Part shown: in pieces, positions 386-9,544 of the stretch | Numbering within the stretch: the first letter of the stretch is position 1 | Layout of the letters: the number at the start of each line of letters is the position of its first letter | Origin: a virus | Lineage: Duplodnaviria > Heunggongvirae > Uroviricota > Caudoviricetes | Direction: 5' to 3' (one strand) | IMG/VR virus record: IMGVR_UViG_2617271086_000006 | Length of the DNA stretch: 13,662 nucleotides | The notes under the pieces: generated by a model | Told to the model about the DNA's origin: nothing | The model's database searches: none | What the model saw: only the letters and a program-made list of their open reading frames with translations | Translations under genes and position numbers: made by a program

Positions 386-1609
386 ATGGCGCTGTCTGAT
401 GCGTGGTTGCGTTCAGTCGTTGGAAAGGAACGTGATAAGGTTTTGGTTAAATCCGATCGTGATGGTCTGTCTGTCAGAGTATCACCGAAAGGTCGCGTAG
501 TGTTCCAATATCGTTATCAATGGGCAGGGAAAGGTGAGCGTCTTGATATCGGAACTTACCCGGCAACTGGATTAAAAGAGGCCAGAGAAGAAGTTATCCG
601 TCTCCGTGGTGAACTCGAGTCAAACCGTAATCCACGATTGGTCAAGCAGGCTGAAAAACGAAAAGCTACTGAAGCCATGACGGTAGAGTCTGTGATCCGT
701 GCCTGGTATGAAGCATATTGTGTAAAAAATAAAAAAGGCTCTGAACAGATACTCCGCTCGTTTGAGCTGCACCTGTTCTCTAAAATCGGGAATATCCCTC
801 ACGATGCAGCTACATTGCATGATTGGTTAGAAGTCCTGGAGCCTCTTAGCACTAAGACTCCAGCAATAGCAGACCGATTGCTAATTAACGCAAAGCAGGC
901 CCATGTCTGGGCGTATAAGAGAAAGCTCATTGAAACTCGCCCGCTGTCGGATATCACGGGTAAAGATATGGATATCCGTAAAGGTCAGAAGAAACGGTTT
1001 CTGACACATGATGAAATTAAAATCCTTTATGCTGCGATCGATGGTTCTCGAATGGTTCCTAAATACCGGGCCTTCATTAAACTATTGCTGCATTTTGGCT
1101 GCCGTAGTTCAGAGCTAATTACCGCCAGGGTGGACGATTTTGATTTCATTAATAAAGTATGGACTGTACCACCAGAACGACATAAGACTGGGGAGATAAC
1201 GGGCGAACCGCTAAAACGGCCCATTATTGAACCGGTTGAAGAGCTTATAAAGTACGCTATTTCTATGAACAATGGTTCCGATATGCTTTTTACTAAGGAA
1301 GGAAGCAGGGAACCCGTTGGTCGGACATCATTGCAGTCGCTGCCTTACAATTTAATGCAGTATGCATGGCGGCGTTTGGGGTATCAATTCCCTCATTGGT
1401 CTCTGCATGATTTGAGGCGAACAGCACGAACAAACTTTTCTGATCTTACTGCGCCTCATATCGCAGAAATAATGCTCGGTCATAAACTGCCGGGGGTATG
1501 GCAAGTTTATGACAAGAGTGATTATTTAGAAGAACAGCGTAAAGCCTACCAGGCATGGTGGGAGAGAGTTGAATCGATTGTTACTTGTTCTGGTTCAGAC
1601 ACCAACTGA
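386..1609 (+). CDS. int: Tyrosine site-specific integrase (phage integrase family, P4-like)
   Basis: 407-aa ORF. Catalytic-domain signatures GCRSSEL (box I Arg), HDLRRTART (His-x-x-Arg) and a C-terminal Tyr region (VWQVYDKSDY). N-terminal region resembles the arm-binding domain. GGTGAG Shine-Dalgarno-like sequence 4-5 nt upstream of ATG 386. Confidence 0.9.
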   Translation: MALSDAWLRSVVGKERDKVLVKSDRDGLSVRVSPKGRVVFQYRYQWAGKGERLDIGTYPATGLKEAREEVIRLRGELESNRNPRLVKQAEKRKATEAMTVESVIRAWYEAYCVKNKKGSEQILRSFELHLFSKIGNIPHDAATLHDWLEVLEPLSTKTPAIADRLLINAKQAHVWAYKRKLIETRPLSDITGKDMDIRKGQKKRFLTHDEIKILYAAIDGSRMVPKYRAFIKLLLHFGCRSSELITARVDDFDFINKVWTVPPERHKTGEITGEPLKRPIIEPVEELIKYAISMNNGSDMLFTKEGSREPVGRTSLQSLPYNLMQYAWRRLGYQFPHWSLHDLRRTARTNFSDLTAPHIAEIMLGHKLPGVWQVYDKSDYLEEQRKAYQAWWERVESIVTCSGSDTN

Positions 1610-1781
1610 CAGTTTGCATATTTTGAACGCAATAAAATATGACAGTCCGCTTTGAGCGAGGAGCGGATATATGATGTTTAGAAAACGCGCGATTTGCAGT
1701 TAAGCAATCTAAGTTACTGATGTACTATACTGGAACTGCTGGCCAGTTTGTGTTGAACACCATCATTATCACAATAAGGAA

Positions 1782-3035
1782 ATGAAAGTCGAAATGAATA
1801 CTAAACTTTTGGCCTATTTAAACAATGAGTTACATGGAGTGTGGATAGATAGTGAAAATCGTAATATCCACATAATACTTAAATCAAGCCTTCCTATAAT
1901 TAAATCCGTCTGGTCAGGAGCACCTATCCACTTTTTGGTAGGTTTATCTACTAAAAATATACTAGTGATTGGGATGTTGATTGAAGATAATGTCGATAAT
2001 CCATTTTTACTAGCCTATCCACCAAGAGAGGCAGATGAAATTAAAGGGCTGGATTTGTTATTGTCAGGCGCTTATGATGGTATTCTATTATCATTTTTTG
2101 ACTCGCATACAATGCGTGTTATGGACCTGAAAATAAAAGTTTCGGAAAATTTACCGTGTGAATGTTTAAAAAAATTTTGTGCTAATTCATATTCTCTCAA
2201 TTCAGGATTTAGGGAAGGTAATGAAGCAATGGATGAATTCTGCAACAATGCTTTGACTGGTAACGAGAAAATAATTAGTCTGCCACTAAGTGTAATCGAT
2301 AAAAAATCTTACCTAGCAAGTGTTCATGAACCAAACGATACCGTATTAACATATGAATTTAGCGTCAGTGAAAACGGCTCTGAGGGATATGAGCAGGAAG
2401 CTCTTATATACCATGCTTTGCGGCAGGTCTTTTCACCGGAGGAAGTGTTTTTTTCTCCAGATATTATTGAGGGTAATAAAAAAAGAGAACTAGTTGATAT
2501 TCTTATTGTAGAAAATGACTATGTATTATCTATACAGTCTAAAGCATCATCTTTGATTGAAATGGGTTTAAAATCTCATGAAAAGCTTTGTAGCATGTAT
2601 AAGAAAAAAGCATTGCAAGGGATCGATCAGGTTAAAGGCGTTATCCCAATTCTAAATAATGATGTGGTTATTAATTATGACGGGAGGGAATGCTTAATAA
2701 AGCGCAGAAAGGGTATTTATCATTTAGTGATAATCTCAGATCTTGTTTTAGAGAAAGAAGGTGCTGAAAAGATTTATAACGAAATTAGCAACCTTAAAGA
2801 GTCAAAAGGGGCGAAAGTTTTAGTTATGAGCCTTGAAGGTCTTGTAAATTTTATAAGACTATCAAGATTAAATAAAAGAATGTTTTGGGCAATGCTGGAG
2901 ACTAAATACAAGTTCAGCATAAAAAACCGTACAATTTTAATTAGAGATATCGACTCTAGCCAAGAGAATAATCTACCATTACTTGCCACTGATCAATACC
3001 TATCACTTCTTCGAGGTACGGGAAAATTAAAATAA
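1782..3035 (+). CDS. AT-rich cargo (moron) protein of unknown function with a putative PD-(D/E)xK nuclease-like core; candidate defence or abortive-infection protein
   Basis: 417-aa ORF, visibly AT-rich compared with the roughly 50% GC flanks. Residues about 201-254 show helix EGYEQEALIYHALRQ, then strand ELVDILIV (Asp), then strand YVLSIQSK (Q-x-K), i.e. a D-x12-QxK arrangement as in Mrr/NERD-type PD-(D/E)xK folds. Start may be ATG 1782 or the in-frame ATG 1794. No confident family assignment. Confidence 0.7.
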   Translation: MKVEMNTKLLAYLNNELHGVWIDSENRNIHIILKSSLPIIKSVWSGAPIHFLVGLSTKNILVIGMLIEDNVDNPFLLAYPPREADEIKGLDLLLSGAYDGILLSFFDSHTMRVMDLKIKVSENLPCECLKKFCANSYSLNSGFREGNEAMDEFCNNALTGNEKIISLPLSVIDKKSYLASVHEPNDTVLTYEFSVSENGSEGYEQEALIYHALRQVFSPEEVFFSPDIIEGNKKRELVDILIVENDYVLSIQSKASSLIEMGLKSHEKLCSMYKKKALQGIDQVKGVIPILNNDVVINYDGRECLIKRRKGIYHLVIISDLVLEKEGAEKIYNEISNLKESKGAKVLVMSLEGLVNFIRLSRLNKRMFWAMLETKYKFSIKNRTILIRDIDSSQENNLPLLATDQYLSLLRGTGKLK

Positions 3036-3220
3036 ATTGTATCAATGATACTGTTGCCACGTATCGAGACTGGCTTATGAACGGAAGGGTTTTCCAGCAG
3101 TTCAGCGACCGGAGCTGCACATCGATGCCGGATTGTGCCTGCAATTATGTACTTGGCTAAGAGGTGCTGCTGGCTCTGGATAGAATAACCCTAACGTCCA
3201 AAGAGCGCGCATTTTCATGT

Positions 3221-3262
3221 AAAAAAATAAATAGCTTGTCTGCTCTTGATACAGAGCAGACA
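3221..3262 (-). terminator. Rho-independent terminator candidate ending the leftward early operon
   Basis: Inverted repeat TGTCTGCTC (3237-3245) / GAGCAGACA (3254-3262) with an 8-nt loop. On the minus strand the stem is followed by AGCUAUUUAUUUUUUU (plus-strand A-run 3221-3233). Confidence 0.5.
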
Positions 3263-3320
3263 GTCAGATCTGTTTGGCTTGTGCCATAGATGTGCCAGCT
3301 CACATTTGAGCTAATGTTTG

Positions 3321-3515
3321 TTACTCAATTACTCCTGCAAACCTGTATATCTTACGTGATGCCCATTTATTTGGGCAGGATTTAATATCAGGATCTGGAA
3401 AATCAGGCCGATATTTCTGACCAGTCCTCCGGTTTACACTGTTCCAGCGAAGCACCGTCGATATTGAAACGCCACAGAATTCGGCGACTTGTTTTGTTGT
3501 CATTAAGTTGTTCAT
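3321..3515 (-). CDS. AlpA/excisionase-like small HTH DNA-binding protein (putative Xis/regulator)
   Basis: Trimmed to the internal Met (MNNLMTTKQVAEFCGVSISTVLRW...), giving 64 aa. Its start codon overlaps the upstream gene's stop as ATGA (3512-3515). HTH-like segment followed by an FPDP motif, as in AlpA/HTH_17 proteins. Last gene of the leftward operon, the usual xis position. Confidence 0.55.
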   Translation of the reverse strand: MNNLMTTKQVAEFCGVSISTVLRWNSVNRRTGQKYRPDFPDPDIKSCPNKWASRKIYRFAGVIE

Positions 3516-3859
3516 TGTTGACCCTCCTGTGGTTGTGCAGTTGAAAGACTCATGCCCGCGCGTTGTTGCCAGACGACCCAGCCGAGAGCCATATCCCACG
3601 CCATGTACTCGTTATCACCGTTTTTTGCTCTCCGACGATCGACTGTTTTACCGAAACGCTTTTCCATAAATAATTCATAGGCTGCGCGTTCATCTGGCTC
3701 AACTTCCAGAGATGCCAGTGCAATCCGTGCCAGTTCTAAATCATCTTCAAGCTCAGCGCGAATCTCAGCGAATGCACTCTGTGTTAAGGCGAACTCAATG
3801 CTCTGCACTTTATTCCGTGCGCGCTCAAGCAGTGCATGGTAGTTAATTTCGGTTGTCAT
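3512..3859 (-). CDS. Hypothetical early-operon protein (115 aa)
   Basis: ORF with ATGA overlaps at both ends (3856-3859 and 3512-3515). GAGG/AGGGG Shine-Dalgarno-like sequence upstream. Acidic, helical-looking sequence with no recognised motif. Confidence 0.7.
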   Translation of the reverse strand: MTTEINYHALLERARNKVQSIEFALTQSAFAEIRAELEDDLELARIALASLEVEPDERAAYELFMEKRFGKTVDRRRAKNGDNEYMAWDMALGWVVWQQRAGMSLSTAQPQEGQQ

Positions 3860-4734
3860 ACCCCTACCTCTTCGAATTTCAATACCAATTGATCACCCCA
3901 GATTTCACATGACTCTGAACACGAGCCGGTATCGAATCGCCTGGCCTGTACCATCGCCTGATACAAATTTCTGTAGTCGCTGTTGGCAGACATTCTGGCA
4001 ATTCCGTCAAGCGTCAGGTGACCACGGTACATAACGTCTTTACCTGTTCTGCGATGACCATCCCTGACGTGTTTGCCTGTAACCAGCTCATTAAAAACTC
4101 GCATCAGACCAGGTTCGTCTTTACATGCAAGCCCCAGCTTTTGCGTTGACTTTTTGATGCAGAAAACACAGTTCCCGAGATGCTCCGGGATTTGCAAATC
4201 AAAAGGTTGTTTTCGCCACCACCGGATAACATCCGACTTATCAAAATCTGACAGTTCGGCAAGATACCGGACGCCCGATTTCGGTTTCAGCCTACGGGGT
4301 TCGTCTGCACGAATACCCAGCCATGTGATGTAATTACCTCGCCCGAAATGGTTATCGCAGTATTTCGTGAAAGGGATGAGTTTTAGCCTGTCAGTACAGA
4401 ACGCGCCGCCGATGTATGGCGTGCCGTACTTTTTAACCATGTCCATAAACGGTTTAAGTACCGGCATTCGCGTCTGAATATCCTTTGGCTCCCATTCTGT
4501 ATAACCATTTGGCTGCCCAAGCTCAGGATTGATATCGACCTGCAACACAGTTAGTGGTATGCCCCAGAACTTCACAACCTCCCGAATAAAGCGGTATGTC
4601 AGCGGATGTTCGCAACCGGTATCCATAAAGATGTAGCAGACGTTATTGCCAGCCTTTCTTTGTTCTTCCATCAGGTGAACAAGATATGCAGATGTTCTCC
4701 CGCCGGAAAAACTAACTACATGAGTTATGCACAT
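3856..4734 (-). CDS. Phosphoadenosine phosphosulfate (PAPS) reductase family protein (PP-loop ATP pyrophosphatase superfamily)
   Basis: 292-aa ORF. N-terminal PP-loop motif VVSFSGGRTS (SGGxxS). GGAG Shine-Dalgarno-like sequence 9 nt upstream. Start overlaps the upstream gene's stop by 10 nt. Confidence 0.85.
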   Translation of the reverse strand: MCITHVVSFSGGRTSAYLVHLMEEQRKAGNNVCYIFMDTGCEHPLTYRFIREVVKFWGIPLTVLQVDINPELGQPNGYTEWEPKDIQTRMPVLKPFMDMVKKYGTPYIGGAFCTDRLKLIPFTKYCDNHFGRGNYITWLGIRADEPRRLKPKSGVRYLAELSDFDKSDVIRWWRKQPFDLQIPEHLGNCVFCIKKSTQKLGLACKDEPGLMRVFNELVTGKHVRDGHRRTGKDVMYRGHLTLDGIARMSANSDYRNLYQAMVQARRFDTGSCSESCEIWGDQLVLKFEEVGV

Positions 4735-5261
4735 TTGCGTAACTCCGATAACTCGTTAAAACGTTCCATAAACATCCCGTAGGCATGTCCTGGTGCCAGT
4801 GGAATCACTTTGAACATCTCTGTTGCCGGGATACCTTCCAGTACAGGCCAGAAAGAGCCATCATCAAGCCCGAGATCGCGGCGTTCGGTTGCCAGCATAA
4901 TGAGATCGGCATATTTCACTGGCGTGCTCATAACAGGAGGTAACCCGTATTTCTCACGGATTACGGCGTCTATTTTTTCTTCCATCTGTTTATAGTCAGG
5001 AAGAAGGCGTTTCAGTGGCGCGGGGATGTCCTGACAATACGCTTCTGTTGCATCATGCATTAACGCTTCAAAAGCAAACTCCTCCGGAACCAGTTTGCTG
5101 CAAAGCACCGCATGTTGGGCGACGCTGTAGAAGTGTGAAAGATGACCGGCAAAGCGACAGATATTTGAAAGGGAAACTGCGATATCGTTAATCACGATGT
5201 CGTCTTTATTTATCCTGTCATAATAAAAATGCTTCCCGGAAAAAGTTTTAATAAATGACAT
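4725..5261 (-). CDS. yfdR: HD-domain phosphohydrolase, YfdR-like
   Basis: Trimmed to the internal Met (MSFIKTFSGKHFYYD...), giving 178 aa, which matches the length I recall for E. coli CPS-53 YfdR. HD signature (H...ALMHDATEAY). GTGGAG Shine-Dalgarno-like sequence 7 nt upstream of ATG 5261. Confidence 0.85.
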   Translation of the reverse strand: MSFIKTFSGKHFYYDRINKDDIVINDIAVSLSNICRFAGHLSHFYSVAQHAVLCSKLVPEEFAFEALMHDATEAYCQDIPAPLKRLLPDYKQMEEKIDAVIREKYGLPPVMSTPVKYADLIMLATERRDLGLDDGSFWPVLEGIPATEMFKVIPLAPGHAYGMFMERFNELSELRKCA

Positions 5262-5355
5262 TTTGTTCTCCACTTTATATGCGCTGCACCGCGCTGAATT
5301 TTGGTTAAAGAAAACCCTCGCCATCAGGCGATTATTGAGTTAATTACGTTTCCAT

Positions 5356-5377
5356 AAATGCCCCCGCAGGGGCATTT
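5356..5377. other. GC-rich hairpin between the YfdQ-like and YfdR-like genes
   Basis: AAATGCCCC (5356-5364) / GGGGCATTT (5369-5377), 9-bp stem with a CGCA loop. No clean U-tract on either strand, so not called a terminator. Confidence 0.4.
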
Positions 5378-5389
5378 GCAGTAATGAAA

Positions 5390-6214
5390 TCAGGCGGTGA
5401 AAGTACCAATAAAGGTTTCTACTTTGCTGTCTTTGAATTTTTCAACAAGCAGATCACGAAATTCGTTAGCCATTTCTTCCTGCACTGCTTCCAGCTGAAT
5501 AATGCGCAGAACCAGTACAGGGCGATCACCAGTGATAATGCTGAGGCGTAATTTAAACGGACGTTCTTTCAGGCCTTCAAACGGAACGCATTTAAACTCA
5601 AATGCTACTGGCATAATGTCTTTGGTTTTCGCTTCGACAGACTCCATCAGAGAGCGTTTGCCGCTGAAGTCATTGTCTTCAAAATCAGCGGTCTGGTTTG
5701 CTTCAATCGTGATTTTACGGACCGCCGCAGCCGCTTTTGTTGCCTGAATGGCGTCACCATTAGCATCAAAGCCCACAAGGTAGTCGGCCCAGTCTTCAAT
5801 CCATTCTGCCAGTGACTTCTGGGAGTTACGCTCGCCGTTAACAGACAACAGGGCAGAGAACGGTGCTGTCTTTTTCAGTTTGAGAGTGGCGGTGTTATCT
5901 GCGTGACCTGGTTCATCAATAGTACCCAGGTTAAGCACACTGACGGCTCGCATATTATCAGCATCGATAAAGCAGCGGGTGCCTTCATCTGCAAGATCTT
6001 TAGAATAACGGGTAAAGTCATCGATGCTGGCAGTGGAAAGCGCACCACGGAAACGGAAGCGATTTAAATTAAATTTTTCCAGATCATGAATGCGGAAATT
6101 CTCAGGCAATGCCACAGCATCGGCACCAATCTTACTGATAATTTCATTAACACCCTGAGCAGAAATAAGGGCATGGATTTGATTAATTGCGGTTGCGTCT
6201 AAGTTCTGAGACAT
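5390..6214 (-). CDS. yfdQ: YfdQ-like protein (DUF2303 family)
   Basis: 274-aa ORF, the same length I recall for CPS-53 YfdQ, in the conserved position between YfdP-like and YfdR-like genes. GAGGA Shine-Dalgarno-like sequence about 7 nt upstream of ATG 6214. Confidence 0.85.
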
Positions 6215-6279
6215 AATAAGTCCTCACTATATAAAGATATTCAGTGATGAGATAAATAATCAGTTTATTAAAAACGATA

Positions 6280-6642
6280 TTAACGACCTGCTGCGCGGAG
6301 TTTTCCGTCAGGTTCACCGGCAAGAGTCAGTAATTGTCCTTGGTCTTCCTGCAGAATAGTCAGGCGACCACCGCGATTGACATACATCGGCGTTTCGGTG
6401 GTGTCTTCTTCGGAAATTTTCCCGCGGTTAGTCGGGCGAACATATGAGAGTTTGTGTTTGATTTTTACACGGTTCTCATCAAACGGTTCGATTTCCAGGT
6501 TGAGCGAGACCTTACCTTTGGTTTTCGTGTTCATCACACCGGAAGCGACTTCACTGAGAACAGCGCCGATTTTGGTTTCAAATACGCCGCCGTCCAGCTC
6601 CCCGATAAATGCCTGCACATCAGTACTGCGTTCGCTAGCCAT
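6280..6642 (-). CDS. YfdP-like small protein (120 aa), first gene of the leftward operon
   Basis: The track ORF (182 aa, TTG-initiated) is trimmed to the internal ATG at 6642 (MASERSTDVQ...), which is preceded by GAGGAG at 8 nt. Resulting length 120 aa. Confidence 0.8.
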   Translation of the reverse strand: MASERSTDVQAFIGELDGGVFETKIGAVLSEVASGVMNTKTKGKVSLNLEIEPFDENRVKIKHKLSYVRPTNRGKISEEDTTETPMYVNRGGRLTILQEDQGQLLTLAGEPDGKLRAAGR

Positions 6643-6779
6643 TTTGCTGCTCCTCATCATATCGACCCCGCAAGGTCGGTTGGTTTCTCCACAAAACAGA
6701 GAAGAACACCAGCGGTGGCAGCCGCCCGGATGGATTGGGTTATGAGCCCGTCGTCCGGTGATGCCCTTCTCTGTTTTGT

Positions 6780-6825
6780 AAAAAGAGCGGTACCAGCCGG
6801 AAGCAAGTGTACAAACTGGTACCGC
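6780..6825 (-). terminator. Stem-loop plus U-tract in the PL leader (tL-like terminator candidate)
   Basis: Perfect 10-bp inverted repeat GCGGTACCAG (6787-6796) / CTGGTACCGC (6816-6825) with a 19-nt loop containing TGTACA. On the minus strand it is followed by UCUUUUUACAAAAC, which also resembles a boxA motif (CGCTCTTTTTA). Confidence 0.4.
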
Positions 6826-7320
6826 CAAAGCAGTGGCTGTTGTGGTGACCGGTGCTGATCTCCGGCTTGCGGTTATTTCAGACTCTCACGGGCGTTTAAT
6901 TGCCCCGCCGAACAGCTCTTTTCCGCAATAGCTGCAATGTCTTTCGCGCATCAGCCTGCGCATTCACCACAACGCTGAGAGCATTGCCGGTGTCCGAATC
7001 GAACGGACCTTTTCCCTGCCCAACCCTCCCATCTGAATGGGACTGTCTGGAATTGAACCAGCACTTATGCCTTGCTCGTCAATGCTCTCATCGTTGCGTC
7101 CTGGTCTCTTCCCAAGCGTCAAACCGAATCGCCACGCTGGTTAGGCGTCTTATCAGCATCCTCATTGACTTGCACATTCCGGCTACCTGGTTTGTTTGCC
7201 CGAGCAAGGAGTGGATTATCCCCTTTAACGTCCCCAGACCGCTAACGACGCATGTGCCATACGCCGTGTTACAACCAAATTTTGTTTGAATCTTGCCTGC
7301 CTCATGTTTCTTTTGGATAC

Positions 7321-8384: not shown

Positions 8385-8948
8385 ATGAGGCTAACCGTGG
8401 GTAAGCATCACTGGAAAGTAGAAAAACAGCCTGAGTGGTACGTGAAAGCTGTCAGAAAAACTATCGCGGCGTTGCCGGGGGGGTACGCTGAAGCTGCTGA
8501 GTGGCTAGATGTAACAGAGAACGCTTTATTCAACCGCCTTCGTGCAGATGGCGATCAGATTTTCCCGCTGGGATGGGCAATGATTTTACAGCGCGCGGCT
8601 GGCACTCACTACATTGCGGATGCTGTCGCACAGTCTGCTGGTGGGGTGTTTGTATCGCTTCCTGAAATTGAGGAAGTAGAGAACGCCGATATAAACCAGC
8701 GCCTGCTGGAAGTCATCGAACAGATCGGGAGTTACTCAAAGCAGATTCGTTCGGCAATCGAAGATGGGGTAGTGGAGCCACACGAGCAGACAGCAATTAA
8801 TGATGAGTTGTATCTGTCAATTTCGAAGCTCCAGGAGCATGCAGCACTGGTCTACAAAATCTTTTGCGCTCCAGAAAAGAGTGACGCCCGCGAGTGTGCA
8901 GCTCCGGGCGTCGTGGCGTTTTGTGTCTGTGGAGAAACTAACGCATGA
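8385..8948 (+). CDS. CII-like early regulatory protein (possibly YdaT family)
   Basis: 187-aa ORF immediately downstream of the cro-like gene. Family assignment is positional and from weak recollection. GTG 8397 with a GAGG Shine-Dalgarno-like sequence is an alternative start. Confidence 0.55.
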   Translation: MRLTVGKHHWKVEKQPEWYVKAVRKTIAALPGGYAEAAEWLDVTENALFNRLRADGDQIFPLGWAMILQRAAGTHYIADAVAQSAGGVFVSLPEIEEVENADINQRLLEVIEQIGSYSKQIRSAIEDGVVEPHEQTAINDELYLSISKLQEHAALVYKIFCAPEKSDARECAAPGVVAFCVCGETNA

Positions 8949-9544
8949 ACAGTTTAACGGCAAATAACCGTTTGTCGCAACAGCTGGTGGTCAGCGTCGC
9001 TGAACACCTGTTGTTACGGCATGAATGCAGATTACCAAATCTCCTGGCTGTAAGTAACCACAGAGAACTTTACCTGACTGTGGGGGGCGAGTTGTGCAGG
9101 AACTTAACCGCTGGTTTCGTGACGGAAGAGGACTTTATGTTCATGTTATTCGTTGGGAGCCAGAAACACAGCGCGTTATCTATCTTCGCAAAGACTACCC
9201 GCATGAGTGCTTTAGTCCTTTGTGGAAATTCAAGCGTGATTTTGTTGAGTGTGAAGGACCACCAGCACATTGATTCTGCCATTCCGGGACGTTACACTGT
9301 TCAGGCACCTTATAAAGCGGGTGCCGGGATTGGCGTCCTGGAATTGATCAAGGCGATATATGACGCGCCAGCGTCTTTTTTATCGTCCGCATTTGCTCAC
9401 ATCAAAGTTATGGTGGGCTGGGCGGGGGCATCGAAAGATGCGCCGGTTTCCTTGATCACCGGTTACGCCAACCCCGTTCAGTTCACCACCAGCGAAATTG
9501 GCGTTTCCGGTGGTGGAAGTGGAACAAACCAGCCCATGAACTGA
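8945..9544 (+). CDS. Hypothetical protein (199 aa)
   Basis: Long ORF coupled to the upstream gene by an ATGA overlap (8945-8948). No recognised motif. A shorter protein-like reading (about 58 aa from GTG 9094) exists in another frame. Confidence 0.5.
   Translation: MNSLTANNRLSQQLVVSVAEHLLLRHECRLPNLLAVSNHRELYLTVGGELCRNLTAGFVTEEDFMFMLFVGSQKHSALSIFAKTTRMSALVLCGNSSVILLSVKDHQHIDSAIPGRYTVQAPYKAGAGIGVLELIKAIYDAPASFLSSAFAHIKVMVGWAGASKDAPVSLITGYANPVQFTTSEIGVSGGGSGTNQPMN

Follow-up and report, generated by a model that had tools for sequence, protein, structure and literature searches.

A one-gene mobile cassette at the int–xis junction of a lambdoid prophage encodes a candidate anti-phage nuclease

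Here we report the analysis of a single cargo gene in a 13,662-nucleotide stretch of DNA from a virus of the Caudoviricetes (IMG/VR record IMGVR_UViG_2617271086_000006). This stretch, referred to as the window throughout, represents the left arm of a lambdoid prophage in the avian pathogenic Escherichia coli (APEC) strain APEC O78 (NC_020163.1), where it is inserted just after yjjG. A preliminary description of the DNA had singled out an open reading frame (ORF) next to the prophage integrase gene as a candidate single-gene defence nuclease. Having followed up the locus, the protein family and the genomic surroundings of the homologues, we place moderate confidence in the interpretation that this gene constitutes a prophage-borne, single-protein anti-phage nuclease system employed in conflicts between genetic elements; both its phenotype and its enzymatic activity are predicted here from fold, conservation and genomic context. 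Below we provide details on the gene and the cassette that carries it, on the genes that occupy equivalent positions in other strains, and on the domain architecture of the protein, and we weigh the alternative explanations alongside the evidence that bears on each of them.

The cargo gene and its cassette

The ORF spans positions 1782–3035 on the plus strand and encodes 417 amino acids (aa), exactly as first described. The annotation made by the Prokaryotic Genome Annotation Pipeline (PGAP) and all distant homologues begin at Met5 (window position 1794), and the cargo protein is therefore most likely 413 aa long (WP_015364392.1), with a coding sequence (CDS) of 1794–3035; residue numbers throughout nevertheless follow the 417-aa ORF. 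It is a real gene under purifying selection, the ratio of nonsynonymous to synonymous substitution rates (dN/dS) being 0.27–0.31 for the unsaturated pairs from E. coli, Serratia and Salmonella. The gene begins 172 bp downstream of the integrase gene on the same strand, and its GC content of 0.338 (0.283 at third codon positions) compares with 0.454 for the integrase gene and 0.493 for the rest of the window, in agreement with the earlier remark that it is strongly AT-rich within prophage DNA of roughly 50% GC. This composition is a property of the family; homologous genes hold a GC content of 0.32–0.35 whatever their host (E. coli, Salmonella, Serratia, Yersinia, Morganella and one further host).

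The slot occupied by the gene is bordered on the left by the prophage integrase gene, int (386–1609, plus strand), the product of which contains Phage_integrase, Arm-DNA-bind_3 and Phage_int_M domains. On the right it is bordered by a 64-aa helix–turn–helix (HTH) ORF (3321–3515, minus strand, the ORF also being delimited as 3321–3599) that resembles xis or alpA and is the terminal gene of a leftward operon; the cargo gene lies upstream of that operon. The proposed placement of the cargo gene between int and a xis-like gene is confirmed on the int side, and an HTH ORF does lie downstream, while its identity as xis is suggested by weak matches to HTH_17 (E ~1e-3, below the Pfam cut-off) and to MerR-type domains. 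This small ORF is absent from the PGAP annotation of NC_020163, although the annotation of phage 2H10 includes a 64-aa CDS homologous to it.

The gene has stable hairpins on either side. A tandem pair lies in conserved backbone DNA directly after the stop codon of int (1615–1668, plus strand; −18.1 kcal/mol, z −3.3), and a perfect 10-bp stem with a 6-nt loop lies at 3237–3262 (minus strand; z −3.9); in neither case was any of 200 shuffled sequences as stable. Read on the minus strand, the latter stem runs into a U-tract, which identifies it as an intrinsic terminator that serves the leftward early operon and not the cargo gene; it coincides with the right border of the cassette described below. 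The cargo gene had been portrayed as transcriptionally insulated by hairpins on both sides. The hairpins themselves are real, whereas the right-hand one serves the operon on the opposite strand, leaving insulation of the cargo gene an inference.

Comparison with related phages and plasmids delimits a one-gene cargo cassette at 1656–3262 (GC 0.358) that constitutes the unit of horizontal transfer. Stx2c- and Stx1a-converting phages, phage 2H10 and PhiR63_1 all match the window up to 1657–1660 and again from 3238–3251, and bear different content between these borders. A phage-plasmid-like IncFIB plasmid from Salmonella carries window positions 1656–3262 at 91.7% identity beside the insertion sequence (IS) IS110, and a Klebsiella plasmid matches 1645–2616 and 2605–3248 at about 92% identity with IS5 splitting the cassette. 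The recent horizontal acquisition that had been suspected from base composition alone is hence borne out by the same 1.6-kb cassette at ~92% identity on plasmids of two other genera. The two parts of the split Klebsiella copy lie at 5851–6826 and 2845–3505 of that locus (L021), and several E. coli members of protein cluster P0001 are truncated, for example to 268 aa on 26 contigs. Because of the IS5 insertion in Klebsiella and these truncations in E. coli, we consider some copies of the cassette to be decaying.

No sequenced phage in the INPHARED collection was found to encode the cargo protein, and the copies of the protein in the databases are all labelled 'hypothetical protein'.

The int–xis slot and the neighbourhoods of homologues

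The preliminary description regarded the int–xis junction as a hotspot for cargo genes, and a comparison of its occupants agrees with this view. The backbone integrase is present in ~700 of 5,426 complete E. coli genomes and the cargo gene in 75 of the 5,426, always in single copy; two extra genomes that were inspected, LR-25 and M2, likewise have the cargo gene in the int–xis slot at yjjG. Elsewhere the slot is filled by other genes instead. Stx2c phages carry a dGTPase defence gene in this position (PADLOC E 7e-105), the enterotoxigenic E. coli strain H10407 (L023) carries Dsr1, and other strains and phages carry solitary genes encoding proteins of 239, 271, 331, 342, 377, 436 and 515 aa; the solitary slot genes that were tested against Pfam and PADLOC gave no match. 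The int–xis junction at the yjjG site is a compact one-gene defence hotspot. The dGTPase and Dsr1 are like the cargo gene in genomic position, in solitary arrangement and in presumed role, whereas their biochemistry is unrelated to that of the cargo nuclease, since the dGTPase depletes deoxynucleoside triphosphates and Dsr1 is a sirtuin NADase. Equivalents of window positions 1660–3240 were located in L023, L002, L003, L004, L005, L006, L022, L024, L025 and L026. The junction in this prophage lineage is found in ~13% of complete E. coli genomes, Stx-converting phages included, and its 239–515 aa occupants represent ready-made candidates for the discovery of further defence genes.

Homologues in other lineages are likewise solitary, and they recur on mobile or variable DNA and in hotspots or islands of defence genes, with PD-T7-1, PD-T7-5, PDC-M02B, Mrr, GAPS4 and TIR genes amongst their neighbours. 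The Morganella homologue lies past the integrase gene of a different prophage and directly beside PD-T7-1 (L009, 6401–7759; E 1.6e-156); since PD-T7-1 is located between that integrase gene and the homologue, the end of this prophage holds two stacked single-gene cargos. The Vreelandella homologue lies beside PD-T7-5 (E 6e-103) and DUF4365/PDC-M02B (E 6e-146), the Pseudoalteromonas homologue is carried by a plasmid-like or integrative and conjugative element-like element with GAPS4 4 kb away, and the Yersinia homologue resides on a plasmid with Mrr_cat, PLD, Tn3 and HEPN genes around it. In Serratia the gene is found between IS copies with a Fic/Phd pair near, and in Thiomicrorhabdus (L015, 6019–12230) it follows a divergent IntI-like integrase gene amongst small genes on the same strand, an arrangement reminiscent of an integron cassette array. 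Three further loci comprise one prophage end and two with TIR and FRG neighbours. A homologue of 61% identity in a P2-like prophage (L010, 8001–10667) is flanked by tail gene S and baseplate gene V. We rejected this position as an instance of the published P2 defence hotspot, because the hotspot described by Rousset et al. is gpA–gpQ, not S–V. An adjoining 438-aa DUF6602 protein at the same locus weakly matches a CRISPR-associated PD-DExK model.

No partner gene is conserved across these lineages and the downstream neighbours are mutually non-homologous, which argues for a one-gene system; a two-gene operon in the distant relatives was considered and rejected for the same lack of homology between the downstream neighbours.

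A nuclease gene that moves between replicons need not protect its host. The same 1.6-kb cassette is found in unrelated replicons and often adjoins IS elements, and PD-(D/E)xK domains are also known from homing endonucleases and from the endonuclease of the R2 retrotransposon; the gene could accordingly be a selfish or accessory nuclease that spreads in a homing-like fashion, or that helps its carrier element to recombine or move, without any phage protection. The way in which the slots are occupied makes this improbable. The slots in sister elements hold other genes and not empty target sites, the E. coli copies are confined to one per genome in the same slot, validated defence genes repeatedly neighbour the homologues, and one copy has been wrecked by IS5, a form of decay at odds with the spread expected of a homing element.

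Domain architecture of the cargo protein

The cargo protein has no match in Pfam, NCBIfam or PADLOC (PADLOC-DB v2.0.0) and in PHROGs it matches only a family of unknown function, so the initial impression that it fits no named family has survived the database searches. A word-indexed search recovered 13 enterobacterial clusters of homologues. At E ≤ 1e-3 an exhaustive profile search extended the family to 225 representative clusters, almost all of full-length proteins of ~400 aa, and a further search traced its distant branch through Gamma- and Betaproteobacteria, Chlorobiaceae, Acidobacteria and Actinobacteriota. A few members carry the NCBI label 'nuclease-related domain-containing protein'. 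One sub-branch (P0070, P0107, P0108 and P0155) comprises proteins of ~540 aa with an extra C-terminal extension of ~130 aa, for which P0070, the sole member scanned, gave no Pfam match. P0050, a repetitive surface protein of 2,283 aa with 23 repeats matching residues 42–116, was discarded as a spurious match. The family alignment comprises 77 diverse members with 15–30% identity to the query and a consensus of EG..xE ... SP ... RELTDxL ... hLIESKAL ... KA..QL.GA; K34, E206, P226, E236, D239, K254 and Q283 are invariant. A PADLOC scan of the 77 relatives returned only three marginal single matches.

The structure was predicted with AlphaFold2 (AF2) from the 77-sequence alignment, and this model (predicted local distance difference test, pLDDT, 90.6; predicted template modelling score, pTM, 0.89) was used for the structure work. 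A first model from a shallow 14-sequence alignment was mediocre (pLDDT 66.5) and was not used for fold searches. Residues ~196–382 (2367–2927, plus strand) form a nuclease domain in which the α-β-β-β-α-β core of the PD-(D/E)xK fold is present. The structure comparison figures were highest for the small subunit of R.BspD6I (12.7; 154 residues, 2.8 Å), Nt.BspD6I (12.5) and FokI (12.3), followed by HindIII (9.7), Can2 (8.8), AF1548 (8.7), Upx (8.5), CdiA-CT (7.8), McrC (7.6), SduA (7.2), NucC (6.8), Avs4 (6.5) and HamA (5.9); a Foldseek search with the model agrees with these results. A viral structure library yielded weak matches to the nuclease domain only and no full-length analogue, and searches of PDB sequences with profiles of both alignments returned nothing significant.

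The catalytic constellation characteristic of the fold is conserved throughout the family. Core helix α-1 (201–214) carries E206 (2397–2399), the motif E236-L-V-D239 with the catalytic Asp (2487–2498; strands 233–236 and 240–244) is located at the start of core strand 2, and core strand 3 (247–254) carries the (D/E/Q)xK element Q252-S-K254 (2535–2543), all on the plus strand. A long helix past the catalytic strands (266–291) contributes Q283 (2628–2630, plus strand). E206, E236, D239, K254 and Q283 are each found in 77 of the 77 members, E236 being additional to the Glu of helix 1, the Asp of strand 2 and the Lys of strand 3. From this pattern of conservation, the active site would be composed of E206, E236, D239, Q252 (Glu in most relatives), K254 and Q283. 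The PD-(D/E)xK fold had been proposed for residues ~201–254 before any structure prediction was available. The AF2 model and the Foldseek search substantiate it; residues 201–256 translate as then quoted, the helix and strands are modelled where they had been placed, and D239 and the Q252-x-K254 motif hold, with the qualification that Q252 is a substitution of the Glu typical of the family. The remainder of the proposed architecture requires revision. The N-terminal flanking region is indeed a separate domain, whereas the supposed 160-aa C-terminal region largely belongs to the nuclease domain, and the suggested sensor-plus-nuclease design is retained as two modules (1–195 and ~196–382) rather than three, with sensing as the presumed role of the first.

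Relatives of the cargo protein match the Pfam NERD profile (PF08378) in a co-linear fashion over profile positions 2–110 of 111, with 14–19 bits (ten tested singly, maximum 19.2) against a gathering score of 22.1 bits. Matches at E ≤ 0.01 occur in 20 of the 77 members (best E 8.8e-6), and the cargo protein itself gave no NERD match even at E ≤ 10. Because the scores stay under the gathering threshold despite being co-linear, we regard the domain as a NERD-like distant relative and not as a certified NERD member; it thus constitutes a divergent NERD-like module with a structural resemblance to the cleavage domain of FokI.

The residue at position 252 raises the question of whether the enzyme is active. 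Amongst the 77 members this position is Glu in 64, Gln in 11 and Ser in two, the clade of the window having Gln, and inactive PD-(D/E)xK homologues such as RecC are known (PMC3424549). The enterobacterial clade might accordingly have lost cleavage with Q252 and have retained a nuclease fold for a binding or regulatory role. We consider this very improbable, given that E206, E236, D239, K254 and Q283 are all still invariant in the Gln-bearing clade and that the change from Glu to Gln arose independently at least 4–5 times, with the other catalytic residues all fixed and without further decay. Moreover, the NERD signature is written '(D/E/Q)xK' and as such includes Gln (bioRxiv 10.1101/2024.01.29.577857). 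The acidic function could also be supplied by the invariant E236, three residues before D239; this E236-x-x-D239 arrangement resembles the 'EPD-XXK' variant of EcoO109I, in which the acidic residue is shifted to just before the Asp (PMC3424549). For these reasons Q252 is read as a tolerated variant rather than as an inactivating substitution.

The N-terminal domain (residues 5–195, from the conserved start onwards; 1794–2366, plus strand) has an α/β fold with pLDDT mostly above 90. W21, K34, K41, G46, D69, P74 and D151 are each conserved in at least 80% of members, and mean pairwise identity is 20% in this domain compared to 32% in the nuclease core. A net negative charge characterises the domain in nearly all members (97%; mean −8, pI ~5), whereas the nuclease half is neutral to basic. 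No relative was found in Pfam, amongst PDB sequences or with hhalign, and the idea that the domain is a degenerate duplicate of the nuclease domain was rejected at an hhalign probability of ~1%. Its acidity speaks for a role in regulation or sensing rather than for one in reading DNA.

This charge bears directly on whether the protein is a restriction-type enzyme, in which the N-terminal domain would read foreign DNA by its modification, structure or sequence and the FokI-like domain would cut it, as in FokI, MspJI and Mrr, without any trigger-gated abortive infection. Such an enzyme would agree with the best structural matches, which come from Type IIS enzymes, whose cleavage domains are joined to distinct recognition domains, with the solitary occurrence of the gene without a methyltransferase in the manner of Type IV enzymes, and with the Mrr-type gene that adjoins the Yersinia copy. 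We nonetheless think it unlikely, because the pervasive acidity of the N-terminal domain is unusual for a DNA reader, because the domain bears no similarity to known reader domains in Pfam or PDB, and because no Type IV model in PADLOC matches.

Proposed function and relation to known systems

The cargo protein fails the membership test of every named family to which it was compared. Its nuclease domain is only 11–12% identical to FokI, to the small subunit of R.BspD6I and to Nt.BspD6I with no sequence-level match, its acidic N-terminal domain is unrelated to their recognition domains, and no cognate methyltransferase lies by the gene. No DNA methyltransferase is conserved next to genes of the family across the more than 15 contexts compared, the Dam-like gene of the prophage being 8 kb off in the backbone. 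NERD proteins are already known to act in defence, including HEC-02B (bioRxiv 10.1101/2024.01.29.577857) and the stand-alone effector ZwsA (bioRxiv 10.64898/2026.04.06.716636). Together with DS-26 of DefensePredictor, these proteins are like the cargo family in the NERD-profile co-linearity of its relatives, the (D/E/Q)xK signature and the defence contexts, and ZwsA and DS-26 are stand-alone proteins, as is the cargo protein. In contrast, HEC-02B requires an ABC ATPase partner, ZwsA cuts RNA and contains VHS, DUF647 and S4 domains, its catalytic residues extending to K582, DS-26 is a Upx-related protein of 532 aa, and none of the three bears the N-terminal domain of the cargo protein. Identity with the 'NERD' system DS-26 was considered and rejected, since this is a different protein and the accessions and peptides of the cargo family are absent from the DefensePredictor supplements.

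The comparison with other nuclease defences leads to a similar result. The cargo protein matches neither DUF4263 (Shedu/SduA) in Pfam nor the Shedu model in PADLOC, and unlike Shedu the family keeps its N-terminal domain conserved alongside the nuclease. The likeness to Can2/Card1, which combine a CARF sensor with a PD-(D/E)xK effector, is confined to the nuclease half; the cargo protein is without CARF, and no CRISPR or cyclase partner was found near the gene. Of the Type IV enzymes (Mrr, MspJI, McrBC and GmrSD) no reader domain or family hidden Markov model (HMM) matched in Pfam or PADLOC, a judgement made by sequence that allows for a novel reader. By analogy, the cargo protein may work like the single-protein nuclease defences Shedu, Upx, DS-26 'NERD' and ZwsA, with the N-terminal module as its new part.

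How could a solitary nuclease of this kind be tolerated by the cell that carries it? Lodged as the sole gene of a 1.6-kb mobile cassette in the int–xis variable slot of a lambdoid prophage at yjjG, the gene would have to produce a nuclease that is held harmless in the lysogen. An unregulated non-specific nuclease would be lethal and the gene has no immunity or methylase partner; control would therefore have to be intramolecular, which makes the conserved acidic N-terminal domain the obvious candidate, either as a sensor or as an autoinhibitor. FokI-type domains possess one active site each and must pair for a double-strand break, and consequently induced oligomerisation is the simplest model of activation. 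Upon infection the N-terminal domain would sense a cue, most plausibly a phage protein or a nucleic-acid structure and not plain duplex DNA, and would license the cleavage domain, probably via dimerisation; cleavage of nucleic acid by the licensed domain would then halt the infection. We favour DNA as the substrate, and RNA is a possible one because the NERD effector ZwsA cuts RNA.

These mechanistic details are put forward with less confidence than the defence role itself. More tentatively, the protein may be the founding member of a widespread one-protein immune family, in which an acidic N-terminal domain (W21, K34, K41, D69, D151) acts as an infection sensor or as a DNA-mimicking autoinhibitor that gates the FokI-like domain by induced dimerisation; the homologues amount to at least 225 clusters at 50% identity from Proteobacteria, Chlorobiota, Acidobacteriota and Actinobacteriota.

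A number of observations weigh against a role in defence. No defence-system HMM in PADLOC matches the protein, and the assignment to defence consequently draws on genomic context. The region upstream of the gene yielded no convincing sigma-70 promoter; transcription of the gene might occur by read-through from int, and expression in the lysogen is thus presumed. The role of the N-terminal domain is deduced from charge and conservation, and in the clade of the window Gln replaces the usual catalytic Glu at position 252, a change that cripples catalysis in some PD-(D/E)xK enzymes. Finally, a few homologues lie amongst housekeeping genes with no obvious defence neighbour, as is the case in Halopseudomonas.

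Hotspots commonly yield candidate defence genes, yet the support for this one is unusually good, and it comes from a large family that has no name. Should the proposed defence role prove true, a broadly distributed single-gene system missed by PADLOC, Pfam and NCBIfam would be added to bacterial immunity. The protein would also provide a test case for the silencing and switching of a non-specific FokI-type module by an unrelated domain. Under the more tentative reading given above, the N-terminal domain would moreover represent a new sensing module for nuclease-based immunity, and the protein a compact, natural 'switchable FokI'. In practical terms, the gene would have a bearing on phage-therapy host range in APEC, extraintestinal pathogenic (ExPEC) and Shiga toxin-producing (STEC) E. 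coli strains with these prophages.

Two further features of the prophage arm lie outside the cassette. In the leftward operon at 3856–6214 (minus strand), a PAPS-reductase-like protein is encoded beside YfdR (an HD 5'-deoxynucleotidase) and YfdQ (DUF2303), a gene set that hints at nucleotide or DNA-modification chemistry. On the plus strand, Rfam identifies isrK at 9305–9381 (64 bits) and the C4 antisense RNA at 9406–9493 (82 bits), inside or beside an 'ash family' ORF (8945–9544); the lambdoid prophage thus contains an antisense immunity element of the P1/P7 type.

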